From Minisyncoccota bacterium (GTDB lineage Bacteria; Patescibacteriota; Minisyncoccia; Phycocordibacterales; UBA12079), in contig JAQTWD010000001.1 of assembly GCA_028689435.1 (NCBI GenBank), positions 96 through 64,095 on the forward strand: 64,000 nt of DNA, written 5' to 3'. The notes beneath the pieces are model-generated. The model was not told where the DNA came from. It was given only the letters and a program-made list of their open reading frames with translations, and did no database searches. The translations under genes and the position numbers were made by a program. Of this stretch, positions 13,263-37,335 are shown one piece after another; position 1 is the stretch's first letter; each line of letters opens with the position of its first letter.

Positions 13263-13469
13263 TAATAAAAAGCCACCTCTTGGCGACTTCTTTTTTTGCA
13301 TTTAAACGACAATATAATCTTTCTTTTGTTTCGTTTCATTCCCTAGTAACGGACATCTAGGGATACCGAGTATAGATTTAGGGATACAATACTATTGTCC
13401 CTATCACTTAAGAAGTGATAATCAACCGATTAAGTCTGTTTCCTCGTAAGAAAACAAACAGTTCATTTT

Positions 13470-15062
<1,593 letters not shown>

Positions 15063-30563: not shown

Positions 30564-30880
30564 ACTGCCGTGTGCGGAACTTGCAAATTTAAGTTTTTAT
30601 AGAAATAAAAAAATTGAATACCTAATGTTGGCGCTTACCTACTTTCCCCATAAAAGAGTATCATCGGTTCTAGAAGGCTTAACTGCCGTGTGCGGAATGA
30701 GAACGGGTGTACCCCTTCCGACGAAGCACCAACATTAGATATTCAATTTTCAATTTTTTTTATTTCTATAAAAACACAATTATTTGCAAGGGTGTCGTAT
30801 TGTTTTCATCTTACAAAATATTTAGTTTATACAAACTAACTATTTTGTAAGATGAAAGCCCTTCCGACGAAGCACCAACA
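30564..30880 (-). pseudogene. outer, truncated 5S-like copy interrupted by the palindromic cassette that carries the intact 5S gene
   Basis: actgccgtgtgcggaa (30564-30579), gggtgt (30790-30795) and cccttccgacgaagcaccaaca (30859-30880) duplicate consecutive segments of the intact 5S 5' half. They are separated by hairpins and by the cassette. Confidence 0.65.
30626..30734 (-). rRNA. rrf: 5S rRNA
   Basis: Reverse complement reads TGTTGGTGCTTCGTCGGAAGGGGTACACCCGTTCTCATTCCGCACACGGCAGTTAAGCC...GGGAAAGTAGGTAAGCGCCAACA. Helix I pairs. Confidence 0.85.
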
Positions 30881-31101
30881 CAAAGTGTTTTAATTTTTGT
30901 TCTGTATGTAATATTTTAAAGTATGAGGAATTTTCACTTCTATTAAAGAAGTGAAAATTCCTCAAATGGTCGGGGAATTCGATCTAACTCAGTTTGCTCT
31001 ATCTATGTTTCTCTTTTGGAAAAACATAGCCGGATTCATCCTTTGGGGATGTACCGGTAACAAAAAGAATTCTTTCGCAATCAAAAACCCCGTTTCAAAT
31101 T

Positions 31102-31182
31102 TGGAGCAAGGGGCTGGATTTGAACCAGCGACAACACAACCTACTCAGGCTATGAGCTCTGTCCTGACTGAGCTACCCTTGC
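31102..31182 (-). tRNA. tRNA-like element in the 23S-5S spacer with a non-canonical anticodon arm (identity undetermined)
   Basis: Reverse complement reads GCAAGGG-TA-GCTCAGTCAGGACAGAGC-T-CATAGCCTGAGTAGGTTGTG-TTGTC-GCTGGTTCAAATCCAGC-CCCTTGC-T-CCA. Acceptor, D-arm, T-arm and an encoded CCA are perfect, but the anticodon arm is a 7-8 bp stem with a 4-6 nt loop. Confidence 0.55.
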
Positions 31183-31474
31183 CCAATATATATGAATAAC
31201 AAGAAATTGTTTTTAAAATAAGAATCGTGTCCTTTGAAATTCCTAATAAGAAATATCTCGATGCATTAGTACTCCTCGGCTGAACACATTACTGTGCTTA
31301 CACCTAGAGCCTATCACCTGATCATCTCTCAGGGATCTTAAACGATTCCTAATCTTGAAGTTGGCTTCCCTCTTAGATGCTTTCAGAGGTTATCCATTCC
31401 CAACATAGCTACCCAGCGGTGCTCCTGGCGGAACAGCTGGTACACCAGAGGTTAGTTCACTCCGGTCCTCTCGT

Positions 31475-32333
31475 CGTGTTTAAAAAATTTCATTCTTTTC
31501 GAAATTCGAAACTATGAATTCAAAATTTTTTATCTTCCCCTATTTCTAGGAGCACAGACTATATCTTCACCCTTTCCTCATGAACAGGACTGGGGTGGTG
31601 GCGTGTTACATACAGAGACTGTCATTTTCACCGAAATGATTCAGCACATCCATACGTCTGTCATAAAAATGGTTTTATTTTTATAGACAAGTCGTTACGG
31701 GGTCAAACCCAAAATTCTATACAAATCTTTTTTATTTAAAGTACTTCGACTGGCATAATTTTCTTTTTTGATTATTAATACCAAATCAACTATTCTGCGT
31801 ATTTGTTGTTTAGATAAATTGTTTATATTAACAGAGCTTAAAATTTCACAAGCTTCTATAAGAGCTTTAGTCTGTTTAGACTTGAACTTTATAAAAGGTT
31901 GTAATAATAAAAGAATTTCTTTTATTGTTTTAAATCCATTAATACGCAATTCGGACATTCCATCGTTTCTACGAGAAATGTATCCCACTCCAAACACTTT
32001 ACGCATCCACAAAAGTGGTTTTTCATGACGAGTATCTTGATACAGACAAATTGTTGCCATAAATCTTACGCCCTTTTTTGTATCAGAACGTTTTTTGATT
32101 TGTAACATCAAACTGCCATCACCATCAAGAAAACCCGCGATGTACGCTAAATTATTTGTATTGATTTTGAATCGACTTCCCACGGTATTGCCTTAAAGAG
32201 GATTATGGTCCTCAAGCATATTATACCACACAAGAACCGAGAGTGTGTATAATACTCAAACCACAACCATATGAAGGTTTCACCGTTATAGCCACTTTGT
32301 CATCACACATCTCTGTGTGAAGTAGCAAAATTT
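31475..32333 (-). mobile_element. group-I intron in the sarcin-ricin loop (between E. coli positions ~2656 and 2657) with a LAGLIDADG ORF
   Basis: Exon junction CCTAGT|...|ACGAGAGGACCGG. The 5' exon ends in U and the intron ends in G. J8/7-like GAAGATATAGTCTG is present. Confidence 0.75.
31695..32183 (-). CDS. LAGLIDADG homing endonuclease (single-motif type)
   Basis: 162 aa. LAYIAGFLDGDGSLML. GTG start inside the conserved 17-mer CAATACCGTGGGAAGTC. Confidence 0.8.
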   Translation of the reverse strand: MGSRFKINTNNLAYIAGFLDGDGSLMLQIKKRSDTKKGVRFMATICLYQDTRHEKPLLWMRKVFGVGYISRRNDGMSELRINGFKTIKEILLLLQPFIKFKSKQTKALIEACEILSSVNINNLSKQQIRRIVDLVLIIKKENYASRSTLNKKDLYRILGLTP

Positions 32334-32384
32334 ACTAGGAGCAAATCTTCTCAAGAATCAACGCCTGCAGCAGATAGGAGACCA

Positions 32385-32419
<35 letters not shown>

Positions 32420-32489
32420 ACTTTTTAATTGGCGAACAGCCAAACCCTTGGGACCTTCTCCAGCCCCAGGATAAGTTGAGCCGACATCG

Positions 32490-33341
32490 CAATGTCGTCT
32501 TTGAACCGCGAGATTCAAAGTTTTAATCCATTGTTACCAATGGTTTGGACTATATATTCACCTTTTTTTTAAAAAAGTTAAGGTGTTGGCGTTTTAGCAC
32601 TTCGTATTTGAAGCACTCTGTCCGTCAACCGACGGACAAGTCTCTACGGGGTCATAACTCAATTTGTATTTCATTGAAGGAATAATGTGTGGTTCAATAA
32701 TAGAATTCAATTTTTCAATACTTTCTTTCAAAAATCTAATCCTATAATATTTTTTATCTTTATTTAAACGAGCCTTTAAGCCCATTTTTCTCAAAGAATG
32801 CAATAATATTTTTTGTTCCTTCATAGAAAATTGTTGTGTGTTTAAATACACATCATTTTTTCTAGATTTACTTCCATCATCCATAAACCAAACCGCTAAA
32901 ATAATTGAATCTAATTCCAAATTATTTGGTATGGTTTTACTTTTATTTTTGTAAAAGTTTTTCATTAAATCAGTTATTTCTGGATGTTGTTTTGTAAAAA
33001 ATCTATAAGCTTTTCTGTCATTTTCTCCACTACTTCCTTTTGGAGGAGAAACACAAATATTTTTTAATATAGAATATTTCCAATCAACATATTCTTTGGC
33101 TTTGATAGAATGATTTATTTCTAAAAATGCATCTTTCCTGTTAGGTGCAATCCTAACATATCCATCACCAAGAATAGATCCCATTATTACTGATTTTTGT
33201 TGTTGAGTTAGACTTCCCACGGTATTGTCCATAATCATTACATTATAGCTGATTATATTATGGAGTCCACCGTTATAAGCCAATATTTTTTGTAGGATAT
33301 TTCTATCCTAGGCACCCCGATGTAAGTTGTAACTTAAGTTA
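32490..33341 (-). mobile_element. group-I intron at 23S position ~2500 (peptidyl-transferase centre) with a LAGLIDADG ORF
   Basis: Exon junction GGCACCT|...|CGATGTCGGCTC. The 5' exon ends in U and the intron ends in G. J8/7-like GAATATATAGTCC is present. Confidence 0.8.
32594..33283 (-). CDS. LAGLIDADG homing endonuclease (double-motif type)
   Basis: 229 aa in the track. Motifs IMGSILGDGY and AVWFMDDGS. The true start may be the GTG at 33220, inside the same 17-mer seen in the other intron. Confidence 0.8.
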   Translation of the reverse strand: MAYNGGLHNIISYNVMIMDNTVGSLTQQQKSVIMGSILGDGYVRIAPNRKDAFLEINHSIKAKEYVDWKYSILKNICVSPPKGSSGENDRKAYRFFTKQHPEITDLMKNFYKNKSKTIPNNLELDSIILAVWFMDDGSKSRKNDVYLNTQQFSMKEQKILLHSLRKMGLKARLNKDKKYYRIRFLKESIEKLNSIIEPHIIPSMKYKLSYDPVETCPSVDGQSASNTKC

Positions 33342-33911
33342 AGGTGCCGAACATCGCCGTCGATATGAACTCTTAGGCGATACCAGCCTGTTATCCCCAG
33401 GGTAGCTTTTATCCGTTAATCTTCACCCGCGTCTAATGCGAGGTGTCGGTTCACTATGCTCTGCTTTCGCACTTGTTCGGCATGCACGCCTCACAATCAA
33501 GCCAGCTTGTGCCATTACACTATCAGCACGGTTTCCATTCGCGCTTAGCTGACCTTAATAGGCTCCTCCGTTACTTTTTAGGAGGATAGCGCCCCACTAA
33601 AACTACCTGCCAGATACTGTCTCCCGCCGTTTTTTCCGTCGAGATTAGAATGTACATTTTTAAAGAGTGGTATTTCACTGATGACTCCAGACAATCCAAA
33701 AACTGCCCTTCAAAGTCTCCCACCTATGCTACGCATCAAAAACATACACCCAATACCAAGCTATAGTAAAGCTCCTGGGGTCTTTTCGTCTAGCTGCAGG
33801 TAACCGGCATCTTCACCGGTATTGTATTTTCACCGAGCTGTTCCCCGAGACAGTATCCCACTCATTACGCCATTCGTGCACGTCTACAATTACTAGACAA
33901 GGAATTTCGCT

Positions 33912-34290
33912 TGATTTTGTTACTATCCAATTTAAAACTGGATGAATGAATCATTTCTGTTCATTTCTACATATCGCTATGCAGTCCGGACTATAATTTC
34001 TAAGTTTAAAACTTAGTCTAGCGTTTAGTCTCTGAGGATTCTTGCGTATTTTGCAAGTCTTTCCTGCTGATTTTCCGCACTGATCAGATTTTTACTTTTT
34101 AGAAAAGTACTGTCAGATTCTCGGATTTTCCAGCATATGGCTAGATGTTTTATGACGTTTTATAAAATAAATTTTATAAAACAGGCAACATTTATTCCTT
34201 AAATTACTTTGTACACCAATTTTTTATCTTGTTTATCTTAGTATCCACAACAGTCCTAGTCTTTGTACCTCCTTATAAAAAAGAGGCACA
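33912..34290 (-). mobile_element. ORF-less group-I-like intron at 23S position ~1931
   Basis: Exon junction CCTAAGGT|...|AGCGAAATTCC. J8/7-P7-like GAAATTATAGTCCGGAC is present. The last intron base reads A, not the expected G. Confidence 0.6.
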
Positions 34291-34325
<35 letters not shown>

Positions 34326-34344
34326 CAGGGCTTATATCAGACAG

Positions 34345-34485
34345 CACGCTCCTCGCTTCGCTCGGAGCAAGTAGTAAGTAAAAGGCAAAAGTAATAAGTA
34401 AAAAATTTGCTTCGCAAATTTTTTCGTTTCTTACTACTTACACCTTACTCCTTAGCACTTGCGTTCCAAACGCAGTGAGGAACGT
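34345..34485. repeat. AGTAAGTA-type palindromic insertion in 23S
   Basis: ACGCTCCTCGCTTCGCTCGGAGCAAGTAGTAAGTAA...AAAAAATTTGCTTCGCAAATTTTTT...CTTAGCACTTGCGTTCCAAACGCAGTGAGGAACGT, absent from the recalled E. coli sequence at this helix. Confidence 0.7.
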
Positions 34486-34600
34486 ACCACCAATATTTAA
34501 CCTTCTGGCATTGGTCAGGCGTCACCCCCTATACATCCTCTTGCGAGTTCGCAGGGAGCTGTGTTTTTGATAAACAGTTGGCAGGATTACTTTCGCTGCG

Positions 34601-34815
34601 GCCGTCGCATCTCGCTACGCTCGATACTCAAATTTTTAATTTTTAATTTTTAATTTTCAAACAATTTTTAATGAAATAATTTTTAAACACGACGACAAAA
34701 TTTGCTTTGCAAATTTTGTGTTTAAAAATTTAAGACATTTTAAAATTTGATATTGTTTAGAAATTAAAAATTAAAAATTAAAAATTCGGCATCAAATGTA
34801 ATGAGATGCGACGGC
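34601..34815. repeat. 215-nt AT-rich palindromic insertion in 23S
   Basis: Arms GCCGTCGCATCTC / GAGATGCGACGGC enclose (AAATTTTTAATTTTT)n arms and a central AAAATTTGCTTTGCAAATTTT hairpin. Confidence 0.7.
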
Positions 34816-35352
34816 AAGCCTTATTCCGAAGTTACGGCTGCTATTTTGCCGAGTTCCTTGGGGAATTATCACTCGTTCGCCTTGGTCTTCTCGACCTGAC
34901 TACCTGTGTCGGTTTACGGTACGGGTTCTTTATACTTAACCTTAGAAGCTTTTCTTGGAAGGCTCTTCGTAAGAATTTTCCAACCCGAGGGAAGAAATTT
35001 AATCTATTTACGAAATTCGACATTAAAGTCAGTTTCCCGGATTTTCCTAAGAAACAATTCTTAAAATAAAATACACAAATCCAATAATGTGCTCTTACTT
35101 GTGTCCTCCGTCACTCCATCGAAATACAAAGAAGTTACGGAATATTAACCGTATGTCCATCAGATCCGGTTTTCACCATCTCCTTAGGCCCGACTAACCC
35201 TTCGCTGATCACCATTGCGAAGGAAACCTTAGTCTTTCGGCGTGCAGGGATCTCACCTGCATTGCGGTTACTTGTGCCAACATTCTCGCTTCTGTACGCT
35301 CCACCATGGCTTACGCCTTTGGCTTCATTGCAGAACAGAATGCTCTCCTACC

Positions 35353-35483
35353 GCTTGTGCAAAGCACAAGCGAGTCATAAGTGATAAGTACTAAGTAATA
35401 AGTAAAAAATTTGCTTCGCAAATTTTTTCGTTTCTTACTACTTAAACCTTACTACTTTTAACTCGCTTGTGCTTTGCACAAGC
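35353..35483. repeat. AGTAAGTA-type palindromic insertion in 23S
   Basis: GCTTGTGCAAAGCACAAGC + ...AGTAATAAGTAAAAAATTTGCTTCGCAAATTTTTTCGTTTCTTACTACTT... + GCTTGTGCTTTGCACAAGC. Confidence 0.7.
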
Positions 35484-36100
35484 CCTAACCTTCGGTACCA
35501 TACTTAGCCCCGATTATTTGCGGCGCAATATCTCTTGATGAGTGAGCTGTTACGCTATCTTTAAAGGATGGCTGCTTCTAAGCCAACCTCCTCATTGTCT
35601 GAGAAATTTCACCTCCTTAAGTGCACTTAGTATGAATTTTGGGACCTTAGATGTAGGTCTGGGCTGTTTCCCTTTTGACCAATGGAGCTTAGCCCCCACA
35701 GTCTAACTGCCTAGAAATTGACTACTGGTATTCGGAGTTTGATAGGATTGACGAAGTTTCCCCCTATTCAATCCTTCCAGTGCTCTACCCCCAGTAGGTA
35801 ATCTAGACGCTAACCCTAAAGCTATTTCGGAGAGAACCAGCTATTACCAAGTTCGATTAGCTTTTCACTACTTGCCACAAGTCATCCGATAGAGTTGAAC
35901 GACTAACCGGTTCGGGCCTCCTTCCGTCTTTCGACGAAATTCACCCTGCTCATGGCAAGCTCACTTGGCTTCGGGTCCTAAACATACAACACAATTTTTT
36001 CGCGCTATTCACACTCGCTTTCGCTGTGCCTCCTTGCTAACGCAATTAGGCTGCTGCATATTTAGACTCGTTGGCTCATTCTTCAATAGGCACGCGGTCA

Positions 36101-36248
36101 CCGTCGCATCTTGCTATGCAAGATGCGACGAAATTAAAAATTTTAAATTATAAATTTGACCAAACAAAAAATAAATTTTTTGTTTTAATTTATAATTTAA
36201 AATTTATCATTTATAATTCCGTCGTTCTTACGCAGTAAGATACGACGG
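36101..36248. repeat. multi-hairpin palindromic insertion in 23S
   Basis: CCGTCGCATCTTGC-TATG-CAAGATGCGACG + an AT-rich palindrome + CGTCGTTCTTACGCAGTAAGATACGACGG. Confidence 0.65.
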
Positions 36249-36299
36249 CTCCCACTCCTTGTAGGCATATGGTTTCAGGTCTATTTCACTCCCCTCTCC

Positions 36300-36342
<43 letters not shown>

Positions 36343-36555
36343 ATCTCTAAAAGTATTTAGCCTTACCGGTTAGTTCCGGCAGATTCCCCCAAGCCATTCG
36401 TGTCTTGAGGTACTCAGGAACAACAATAAAAAAGATAAATTGTTTTCGTTTACGGGACTATTACCCTCTAGGGTCCTGCTTCCCAGCAGATTCAACTAAC
36501 AAAATATTTTTTGACTTTTTTCATTACAAGAATGACACTGTTGTCCTACAACCCC

Positions 36556-36702
36556 AGTCGCTCCTCGCTATGCTCGGAGCAAGTAGTAAGTAATAAGGTA
36601 TAAATAATAAGTAAAAAATTTGCTTCGCAAATTTTTTCGTTTCTTACTACTTATACCTTACTCCTTAGCACTTGCGTTCCGAACGCAGTGAGGAACGACT
36701 GG
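36556..36702. repeat. AGTAAGTA-type palindromic insertion in 23S (near-duplicate of 34345..34485)
   Basis: CAGTCGCTCCTCGCTATGCTCGGAGCAAGTAGTAAGTAATAAGG...CTTAGCACTTGCGTTCCGAACGCAGTGAGGAACGACTGG. Confidence 0.7.
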
Positions 36703-37335
36703 TTTGGGCTCTTTCGCTTTCGCTCGCCACTACTTACGAAATATTATCTAAATAAATAGACATTGTTTTCTTTTCCTCTGGGTACTGAGATGTTTCACTT
36801 CCCCAGGTGCACTCCGAGTATCCTTTATAGATACAAGGTAATCTGTGTTCAACAGATTGGGTTCCCCCATTCGGAAATCTCCGGATCACAGGTTGCTAGT
36901 CACCTACCCGAAGCTTATCGCAGACATGCCACGTCCTTCATCGCCTTTTAGAGTCAAGGCATCCACCATACGCCCTTATGAATTTCCTATTAGGAAATTC
37001 AAACAACGCAATTCTTATTTTAATACAATTTTTTTACCTACAGATCTAAAAATTTAATTTTTAATTAAACTTAAAGACCCATTGATTGACTTGTCTCTGG
37101 TATAAGACAAATCACTTGTTATTCATTTTTCAACGAACATTTCATTCAGCCATTTAATCTTACAGTCTCGGCGAAGTTTTGGATAAATCCAAAACTTCGC
37201 TGAAACAATAAATTTAAAAAAAATAAAACCGCTCTTTTTGTTTTAAGCGGTATCTACCCAAGATAGCATCTAAAAGACGCCTACATCACCCGCTTATTTA
37301 AATTAGTTTTAGCTACTCTATTTAGCACGGTTACT

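Follow-up and report, generated by a model that had tools for sequence, protein, structure and literature searches.

A group I intron carrying a LAGLIDADG endonuclease gene at U2656/A2657, in the sarcin-ricin loop of a 23S rRNA gene from a Minisyncoccota bacterium

An interrupted sarcin-ricin loop

The window, a stretch of 64,000 nucleotides from a Minisyncoccota bacterium, carries on its minus strand a 23S rRNA gene of the bacterial type (Rfam LSU_rRNA_bacteria, 1803.7 bits, full model 1-2925), followed downstream on the same strand by a tRNA-like element and then by the 5S gene. An insert of 859 nt (minus strand, 32333..31475) interrupts the 23S gene, and its excision rejoins ...GCUCCUAGU to ACGAGAGGACC.... 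Read along the minus strand, the junctions are ...GATTTGCTCCTAGT(32334) / AAATTTTGCTAC...AAACACG(31475) / (31474)ACGAGAGGACCGGAGTG or, with longer flanks, ...GAUUUGCUCCUAGU(32334) / AAAUUUUGCUAC...AAACACG(31475) / (31474)ACGAGAGGACCGGAGUG. Once joined, the flanks align with the 23S rRNA of E. coli without a gap across the junction, where 27 nt are identical (TGCTCCTAGTACGAGAGGACCGGAGTG). As for numbering, the start of AGUACGAGAGGACC is 2653 in the 2903-nt RefSeq annotation and A2654 in the standard 2904-nt numbering. The junction is U2656/A2657 of the sarcin-ricin loop, three nucleotides 5' of the GAGA tetraloop. An A present at both sides creates a one-nucleotide sliding ambiguity; we chose the register in which the 5' exon ends in U and the insert in G, because of the rule that asks for a 5' exon U and a terminal G, and because of the covariation of P9.0 described below.

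An earlier, sequence-only reading of this DNA had placed an insert at 31475-32333, with its junction between U2656 and A2657 of the sarcin-ricin loop, and had left the coordinate to be fixed by an alignment. The gapless alignment with E. coli agrees exactly with these limits, and the insertion stays within the loop, at the same two nucleotides. The main features of the locus are as follows:

32334..32339, minus strand: end of the 5' exon (CCUAGU), with U2656 at 32334, from the E. coli 23S alignment
31475..32333, minus strand: group I intron, 859 nt, from the junction alignment, Rfam and covariation
31695..32183, minus strand: open reading frame of 162 aa with a GUG start, lying in loop L6 (Pfam PF00961, LAGLIDADG_1, 45.1 bits, E=2e-11)
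31258..31474, minus strand: 3' exon, first base A2657 (ACGAGAGGACC...), from Rfam and the E. coli 23S alignment

A covarying group I fold

The insert is a group I intron with a homing-endonuclease gene. Rfam does recognize it (Intron_gpI, RF00028, match at 31536-31789), at 27.8 bits (E=1.6e-4), a score that does not reach the gathering threshold of 50, with good alignment in J8/7-P7-P9 only. Elsewhere the alignment is broken up by the 489-nt open reading frame in L6 and by the peripheral inserts. Similarly sub-threshold group I matches (E<=1e-4) were accepted in a survey of 23S genes from the Candidate Phyla Radiation (CPR), according to its main text (PMC11270868). As the Rfam score stays under the threshold, the case for a group I intron is made here by comparing relatives.

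A protein search of species-representative genomes gave 53 loci, one of them interrupted by a contig end and one with a deleted reading frame, and 50 complete introns were aligned (alignment A1). All 53 of the 53 related species-level genomes have the intron at the identical site, in the form ...YAGU / A...G / ACGAGAGGACC; their host groups are Campbell-, Kaiser-, Nomura-, Wolfe-, Colwell-, Vogel- and Uhrbacteria, together with Paceibacterota. The nearest homologues of the intron protein, at 81-82% identity, come from contigs of Candidatus Campbellbacteria and Patescibacteria. A fold was drawn by hand and scored on this alignment, using as controls partners slid by 1-3 columns and 500 shuffles. 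Across the 50 introns paired cells amount to 88.3%, and to 38-44% once the partners are slid; compensatory changes, affecting both sides, occur in 59 of the 92 pairs, and none of the 500 shuffles attains the observed values. Compensatory support extends to P2, P3, P4, P7.1, the inner stem of P7.2, P8 and P9. The parts of the ribozyme, where intron position i is 32334 minus the window coordinate, are:

32323..32337, minus strand: P1, exon UAGU and intron A1 with U7-G8-C9-U10-A11; U.G in 50/50, flanking pairs in 48-50/50
32303..32320, minus strand: P2 hairpin, intron 14-31, 7 bp with a GAGA loop; 7/7 pairs compensated, 98% of cells paired
32291..32295, minus strand: P3 5' strand GUGGC, intron 39-43, partner GCCAC at 31598-31602; 99% paired, 3/5 covary (GC/AU, UA/CG)
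32281..32285, minus strand: P4 5' strand CGGUG, intron 49-53, partner UACCG at 32183-32187; 100% paired, one C-G to U-A change, in relative L050
32191..32277, minus strand: P5 and the P5a extension, intron 57-143; 12 covarying P5a pairs, in a loosely aligned region
32179..32181, minus strand: P6 5' strand GGG, intron 153-155, partner CCC at 31700-31702; invariant, 50/50
31690..31694, minus strand: P7 5' strand CGACU, intron 640-644, within the R-like GUAACGACUU; invariant, 50/50, pairs with AGUC(U)G at 31555-31560
31659..31689, minus strand: P7.1 hairpin, intron 645-675; 10/12 pairs covary
31610..31649, minus strand: P7.2 extended hairpin, intron ~685-724; inner stem UCAUUU/AAAUGA 99% paired and covarying, outer part poorly aligned
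31568..31602, minus strand: P3 3' strand GCCAC and, directly after it, P8, intron 732-766; P8 98% paired, 4/5 and 4/4 pairs covary
31555..31567, minus strand: J8/7 and P7 3' strand, AAGAUAU-AGUCUG (S element); family-invariant, in the Rfam Intron_gpI match
31537..31552, minus strand: P9 hairpin CUCCUA-GAAA-UAGGGG with its GNRA loop; 100% paired, 5/6 covary
31481..31536, minus strand: AT-rich P9.1-type insertion of ~55 nt (A1 columns 1264-1350)
31475..31477, minus strand: 3' end A-C-G, with the terminal G at 31475; the nucleotide at -2 (31477) pairs with 31554, the first after P7, as P9.0

The order of these elements is P1, P2, P3, P4, P5 with a long P5a, P4', P6, the reading frame in L6, P6', J6/7 (GUAA) and P7, and then P7.1, P7.2, P3', P8, J8/7, P7', P9 and a short tail to the terminal G. 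The conserved core P3-P4-P6-P7-P8 is present, with its P3/P7 pseudoknot and with R- and S-type sequences, and P3, P4 and P8 are 98-100% paired, with compensatory changes, in the 50 introns. P6 (GGG/CCC) and P7 (CGACU/AGUC-U-G) are invariant, so that they fit the fold and lie beyond the reach of covariation; the assignment of P6 is an analogy with the canonical Q element and is to be taken as probable, while the G of the P7 5' strand is the presumed guanosine-binding pair. Within P5a, the loop GGUYC (intron 96-100) is complementary to GGACC (123-127), 97% paired and nearly invariant, which makes a candidate pseudoknot. Inserts like the P9.1-type one of the window are rare: a similar one is found in L003 only among the 50 introns, and a shorter version in L002. 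Several members have unrelated inserts at the same point after P9, and most introns end ~8 nt past that hairpin.

The splice sites bear the marks of the class. At the 5' site the wobble U(-1).G8 is found in 50 of 50 introns, flanked by three exon pairs and one intron pair; P1 is short (5 bp), and the fold shows no convincing P10 pairing. At the other end the terminal G is present in all 50 family members, and P9.0 is paired in every one of them, as UA (22), CG (20), AU (6) or UG (2), when neighbouring positions pair in 0, 12 and 23 of 50. The J8/7-like GAAGATATAGTC lies at 31568..31557 on the minus strand. The sequence-only reading had recognized all this in outline: its group I intron is borne out by the covarying fold, P9.0 and the splice-site marks, its 5' exon U and terminal G recur throughout the family, its J8/7-like sequence has been located, and the LAGLIDADG gene which it saw inside the intron is the PF00961 reading frame (E=2e-11) at 31695-32183 on the minus strand.

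Another fold had been tried, in which AAGUCG and CGACUU closed the loop of the reading frame and NAGAC, after the first hairpin beyond it, formed the P7 5' strand. It was dropped because its GAC varies (GGC, GAG, GAU, GAA) without compensation in the invariant GUC. The invariant GUAACGACU matches the canonical R element instead.

The core is subgroup-IA-like; the IA mark is the pair of hairpins between P7 and P3'. A phage similarity search with the 3' core returned 35-nt J8/7-P7 matches only (best E=4e-3), too weak to settle a subgroup. The phage T4 td intron (subgroup IA) is a likely parallel. It, too, presumably has two extra hairpins separating P7 from P3', an R-like ...UAACGACU... and an S-like GAGAUAUAGUCUG, which the R-like GUAACGACU and S-like GAAGAUAUAGUCUG of the window intron seem to resemble, a GNRA-loop P9 directly after P7, and a reading frame in a loop at the periphery of the P6 region. 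We take it to differ in its host, a phage protein gene, and in its enzyme, the GIY-YIG endonuclease I-TevI, where the window intron has an rRNA gene and a LAGLIDADG protein. The large P5a extension, with its candidate pseudoknot, also sets the window intron apart from td.

The P9 5' strand with its preceding base (GCUCCUAG, within 31537-31552, minus strand) repeats the end of the exon before its U (GCUCCUAG/U, 32335-32342). Most family members keep CUCCUR in P9; in L047 the hairpin is wholly replaced (CACGUG-GUGA-CACGUG), so that the likeness may be due to chance, or else P9 may be a weak mimic of the 5' exon.

An endonuclease gene embedded in the ribozyme

The protein consists of a single LAGLIDADG_1 domain, above the Pfam cut-off, and has 2343 homologues. 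Its best solved relatives in the PDB are I-MsoI (2.5e-19) and I-CreI (about 1e-12), with I-CvuI also among the nearest structures. At least 90% of 46 homologues share the LAYIAGFLDGDGS motif, which aligns with the I-CreI motif. The acidic residue of GFLDGDGS is conserved too, as are the glutamine and lysine aligned to Q47 and K98 of I-CreI. One motif, a catalytic acidic residue and a length of ~160 aa are what characterizes the I-CreI type, and all three are found here. Intact reading frames of 158-168 aa occur in 46 of the 50 family copies, and dN/dS against the window copy is 0.13-0.30, a sign of purifying selection. Together these two facts indicate that the protein is maintained as an endonuclease, as a maturase or as both. 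In L008, L050 and L054 the endonuclease gene is frameshifted or deleted while the ribozyme core is intact, as is expected of the decay stage of a homing cycle.

The resemblance to the intron of the chloroplast LSU gene of Chlamydomonas reinhardtii, which encodes I-CreI, is worth spelling out. There, too, a group I intron occupies a universally conserved loop of the 23S rRNA, and it encodes a single-motif, homodimeric LAGLIDADG enzyme of ~160 aa. It differs from the window intron in its site, 2593 instead of 2656, and the similarity between the proteins is at family level only (E about 1e-12); as the insertion sites differ, the DNA targets of the two enzymes must differ as well. A closer parallel is I-ShaI, likewise a single-domain LAGLIDADG_1 protein from a group I intron in a CPR 23S gene. 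Described in the main text of PMC11270868 as a demonstrated homodimer that cuts its own insertion site, and as the sole biochemically characterized endonuclease of a CPR rRNA intron, it belongs to site 23IS7, the window intron to 23IS14.

The gene and the ribozyme share nucleotides. An AAGG that belongs to the P5 3' strand stands ~8 nt upstream of the GUG start and is likely the Shine-Dalgarno sequence of the reading frame; the GUG itself overlaps the last base of P4', and the GGG of the P6 5' strand (intron 153-155) comes after its first base. That the start of the reading frame doubles as ribozyme sequence accounts for the invariance of VGSR and of the 17-mer CAAUACCGUGGGAAGUC. We further observed that AAGUCG (codons 2-4 of the reading frame, 32173-32178) is fully complementary, on the minus strand, to CGACUU, which is the P7 5' strand with one more base (31689-31694). 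Across the 50 introns these two sequences hardly vary (AAGUCA occurs once), which places the pairing outside what covariation can probe. Judging from complementarity, the two could pair with each other at the expense of the catalytic core. With a Shine-Dalgarno sequence and a start codon inside P5'/P4'/P6, and with AAGUCG facing the CGACUU of P7, folding of the ribozyme and translation of the endonuclease may be mutually exclusive.

A published family, its probable splicing and mobility

Tsurumaki, Sato, Saito and Kanai (2024, J Bacteriol, PMC11270868) surveyed 348 CPR 23S genes and describe 14 frequent insertion sites. According to the main text, group I introns are found at 23IS6-14, LAGLIDADG_1 predominates at positions 1917, 1931, 1952, 2593, 2604 and 2657 (23IS6-8, 12-14), 'position 2657' is 23IS14, and group I introns at this site, among others, were unreported in non-CPR bacteria. 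With a junction at U2656/A2657, a host in the CPR/Patescibacteria and a one-domain LAGLIDADG_1 protein, the window intron is an ordinary, well-formed member of this published 23IS14 family, and occupation of the site by an intron is already known for CPR bacteria. Host group, site (its numbering in the paper is approximate), intron class and reading frame family are shared, and nothing essential differs from the description in that text; the window copy bears, in addition, its extra ~55-nt P9.1-type insert. The sequence-only reading had suggested that the site was an unlisted one, adding that catalogue data showing a well-populated site would tell against this. It was right about the classical organellar and bacterial lists consulted here – the chloroplast rrl list, running from 958 to 2596, is without the 2656/2657 site (PMC2997540) – and wrong about CPR bacteria, where 23IS14 is frequent (PMC11270868, main text) and where the intron is present in 53 of 53 relatives. 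Because the 2024 catalogue lists the site as frequent, the claim of novelty fails.

In our literature search the 2024 survey alone proved relevant to group I introns at 2656/2657. The name 'L2656' was not found, there was no mention of the site in an archaeal survey (PMC6125680) or in the 2025 intron database paper (PMC11835236), and no report of it outside CPR was retrieved. Nor did this search retrieve a paper joining sarcin-ricin, homing endonuclease and intron, an identification of site '2657' as the sarcin-ricin loop, a published fold of its intron or an assay of its endonuclease; the main text of PMC11270868 gives the site number and the reading frame family only, with no sarcin-ricin loop, fold or exact junction. 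What the present analysis adds is the fold supported by covariation, the exact junction and an explanation of the 17-mer common to neighbouring introns.

We hold, with a probability of about 0.9, that the insert belongs to the mobile group I introns of the family at 23IS14 ('2657', or L2656 by the preceding-nucleotide convention). The sarcin-ricin loop is the factor-binding site of the ribosome and is among the most conserved RNA sequences known; with an intron in it, all the ribosomes of a single-operon host depend on accurate splicing. Transcription of the pre-rRNA would read through the intron, and the ribozyme would then fold into P1-P2, P3-P8, P4-P6, P7 with P7.1 and P7.2, and P9 with its GNRA loop. 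An external guanosine would attack 3' of U2656, held in P1 by the U.G wobble, and the terminal G, placed by P9.0, would set the 3' splice site. Ligation of the exons would restore the sarcin-ricin loop, the joined sequence reading ...CUCCUAGU-ACGAGAGG.... Alpha-sarcin inactivates ribosomes by one cut in this loop. As a single cut there kills ribosomes, and as the intron is nevertheless kept in every relative, we strongly infer that splicing ends with exon ligation; the functional need for splicing was rightly seen in the sequence-only reading. Insertions in CPR rRNA are removed from transcripts (PMC11270868, main text, citing Brown et al., 2015). Among the RNA sequencing runs that we searched, none contains the window intron. 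Four groundwater metatranscriptomes gave contigs that bridge the junction, short and at 90-95% identity; as they derive from other organisms, their joints that skip the 859 nt are not assignable to the window genome.

Splicing might depend on protein: the intron, a real group I intron, would no longer splice by itself and would need the LAGLIDADG protein as a maturase, or a host factor. LAGLIDADG maturases are established for fungal mitochondrial introns, P1 is short and P10 not detectable, and a reading frame under purifying selection and intact in 46 of 50 copies suits a maturase as well as homing. Against this stand a catalytic core (P3, P4, P7, P8, J8/7, P9.0) that is complete and strongly conserved, and the introns of L008, L050 and L054, whose reading frames are broken or deleted and whose ribozymes are intact, so that splicing without the cognate protein seems to be tolerated. 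On balance we think that such a dependence is unlikely. It is far less credible that the insert is an intervening sequence cut out by a nuclease, RNase III or some other, with no ligation to follow and with a fragmented 23S rRNA as the result. The group I fold covaries, the 5' splice site has its U.G and the 3' end its G, the insert lacks the long flanking stem of the RNase III type, and a nick at this place, equivalent to inactivation by alpha-sarcin, should be lethal, yet the insert is kept in 53 of 53 relatives; this outweighs the precedent of bacterial intervening sequences that fragment 23S rRNA, which probably exist in CPR, at 23IS2 and 23IS4 (PMC11270868, main text). Least probable of all is that we are dealing with a defunct rRNA copy or with a chimera of the assembly, the intron being without functional consequence: our rRNA gene search covered the window, which holds one 23S copy, but this copy spans the full Rfam model (1-2925, 1803.7 bits) and keeps its functional centres, with for instance 85% identity to E. 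coli over 2500-2629, the arrangement is repeated in 53 independent assemblies, and CPR genomes usually have a single rRNA copy (PMC11270868, main text).

To return to the mobile, ligating group I intron, its mobility would follow from the protein. By analogy with I-CreI the 162-aa product would be a LAGLIDADG enzyme acting as a homodimer, which presumably cuts the intron-less DNA of the sarcin-ricin loop (TTGCTCCTAGTACGAGAGGACCGGAG) and so lets the intron home into empty alleles; it may also aid splicing. The target of this predicted homodimeric meganuclease would be the DNA encoding the sarcin-ricin loop, of which 27 bp are identical in the window bacterium and in E. coli, with a palindromic GTAC astride the insertion point. 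If the enzyme is active on that DNA, nearly every rDNA would in principle be open to homing by this intron lineage, which nevertheless appears confined to CPR. The two proposals, that the enzyme of site 2656 is an active sarcin-ricin-loop meganuclease and that ribozyme folding and endonuclease translation make up an RNA switch, are tentative, and we give them a rather low probability.

The order of the rRNA genes is unusual, and they are not linked (13466-15061 and 30626-36989, minus strand): 23S, tRNA-like element and 5S come first, and 16S lies ~15.5 kb downstream of 5S on the minus strand, with protein genes between. The 23S gene of the window has further insertions, in keeping with reports that CPR genes contain many of them. 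Another group I intron, the second (32490-33341, minus strand), sits at E. coli position ~2500, with a weak Rfam group I match at 32527-32644 and a reading frame for a 229-aa LAGLIDADG_2 protein (32594-33283, PF03161, E=5.8e-42). It has in common with the sarcin-ricin-loop intron a 17-mer, CAATACCGTGGGAAGTC, which is found again in the upstream intron of the relatives L051 and L053; as this 17-mer makes up P4', P6 and the start of L6 in the fold, it is a piece of ribozyme core, not a recombination scar. A third intron, devoid of a reading frame, lies at 33912-34290 (site ~1931). Stretches of the 23S gene at 36365-36762, 35978-36247, 35308-35540 and 34962-35105 do not align with E. coli, and some of them may be diverged rRNA segments rather than insertions. 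Finally, an AT-rich insert of ~240 nt (34581-34817), between E. coli positions ~1703 and 1770, scores as a long hairpin on both strands (with spurious MIR7533 matches); its appearance is that of a palindromic intervening sequence and not of a group I intron.
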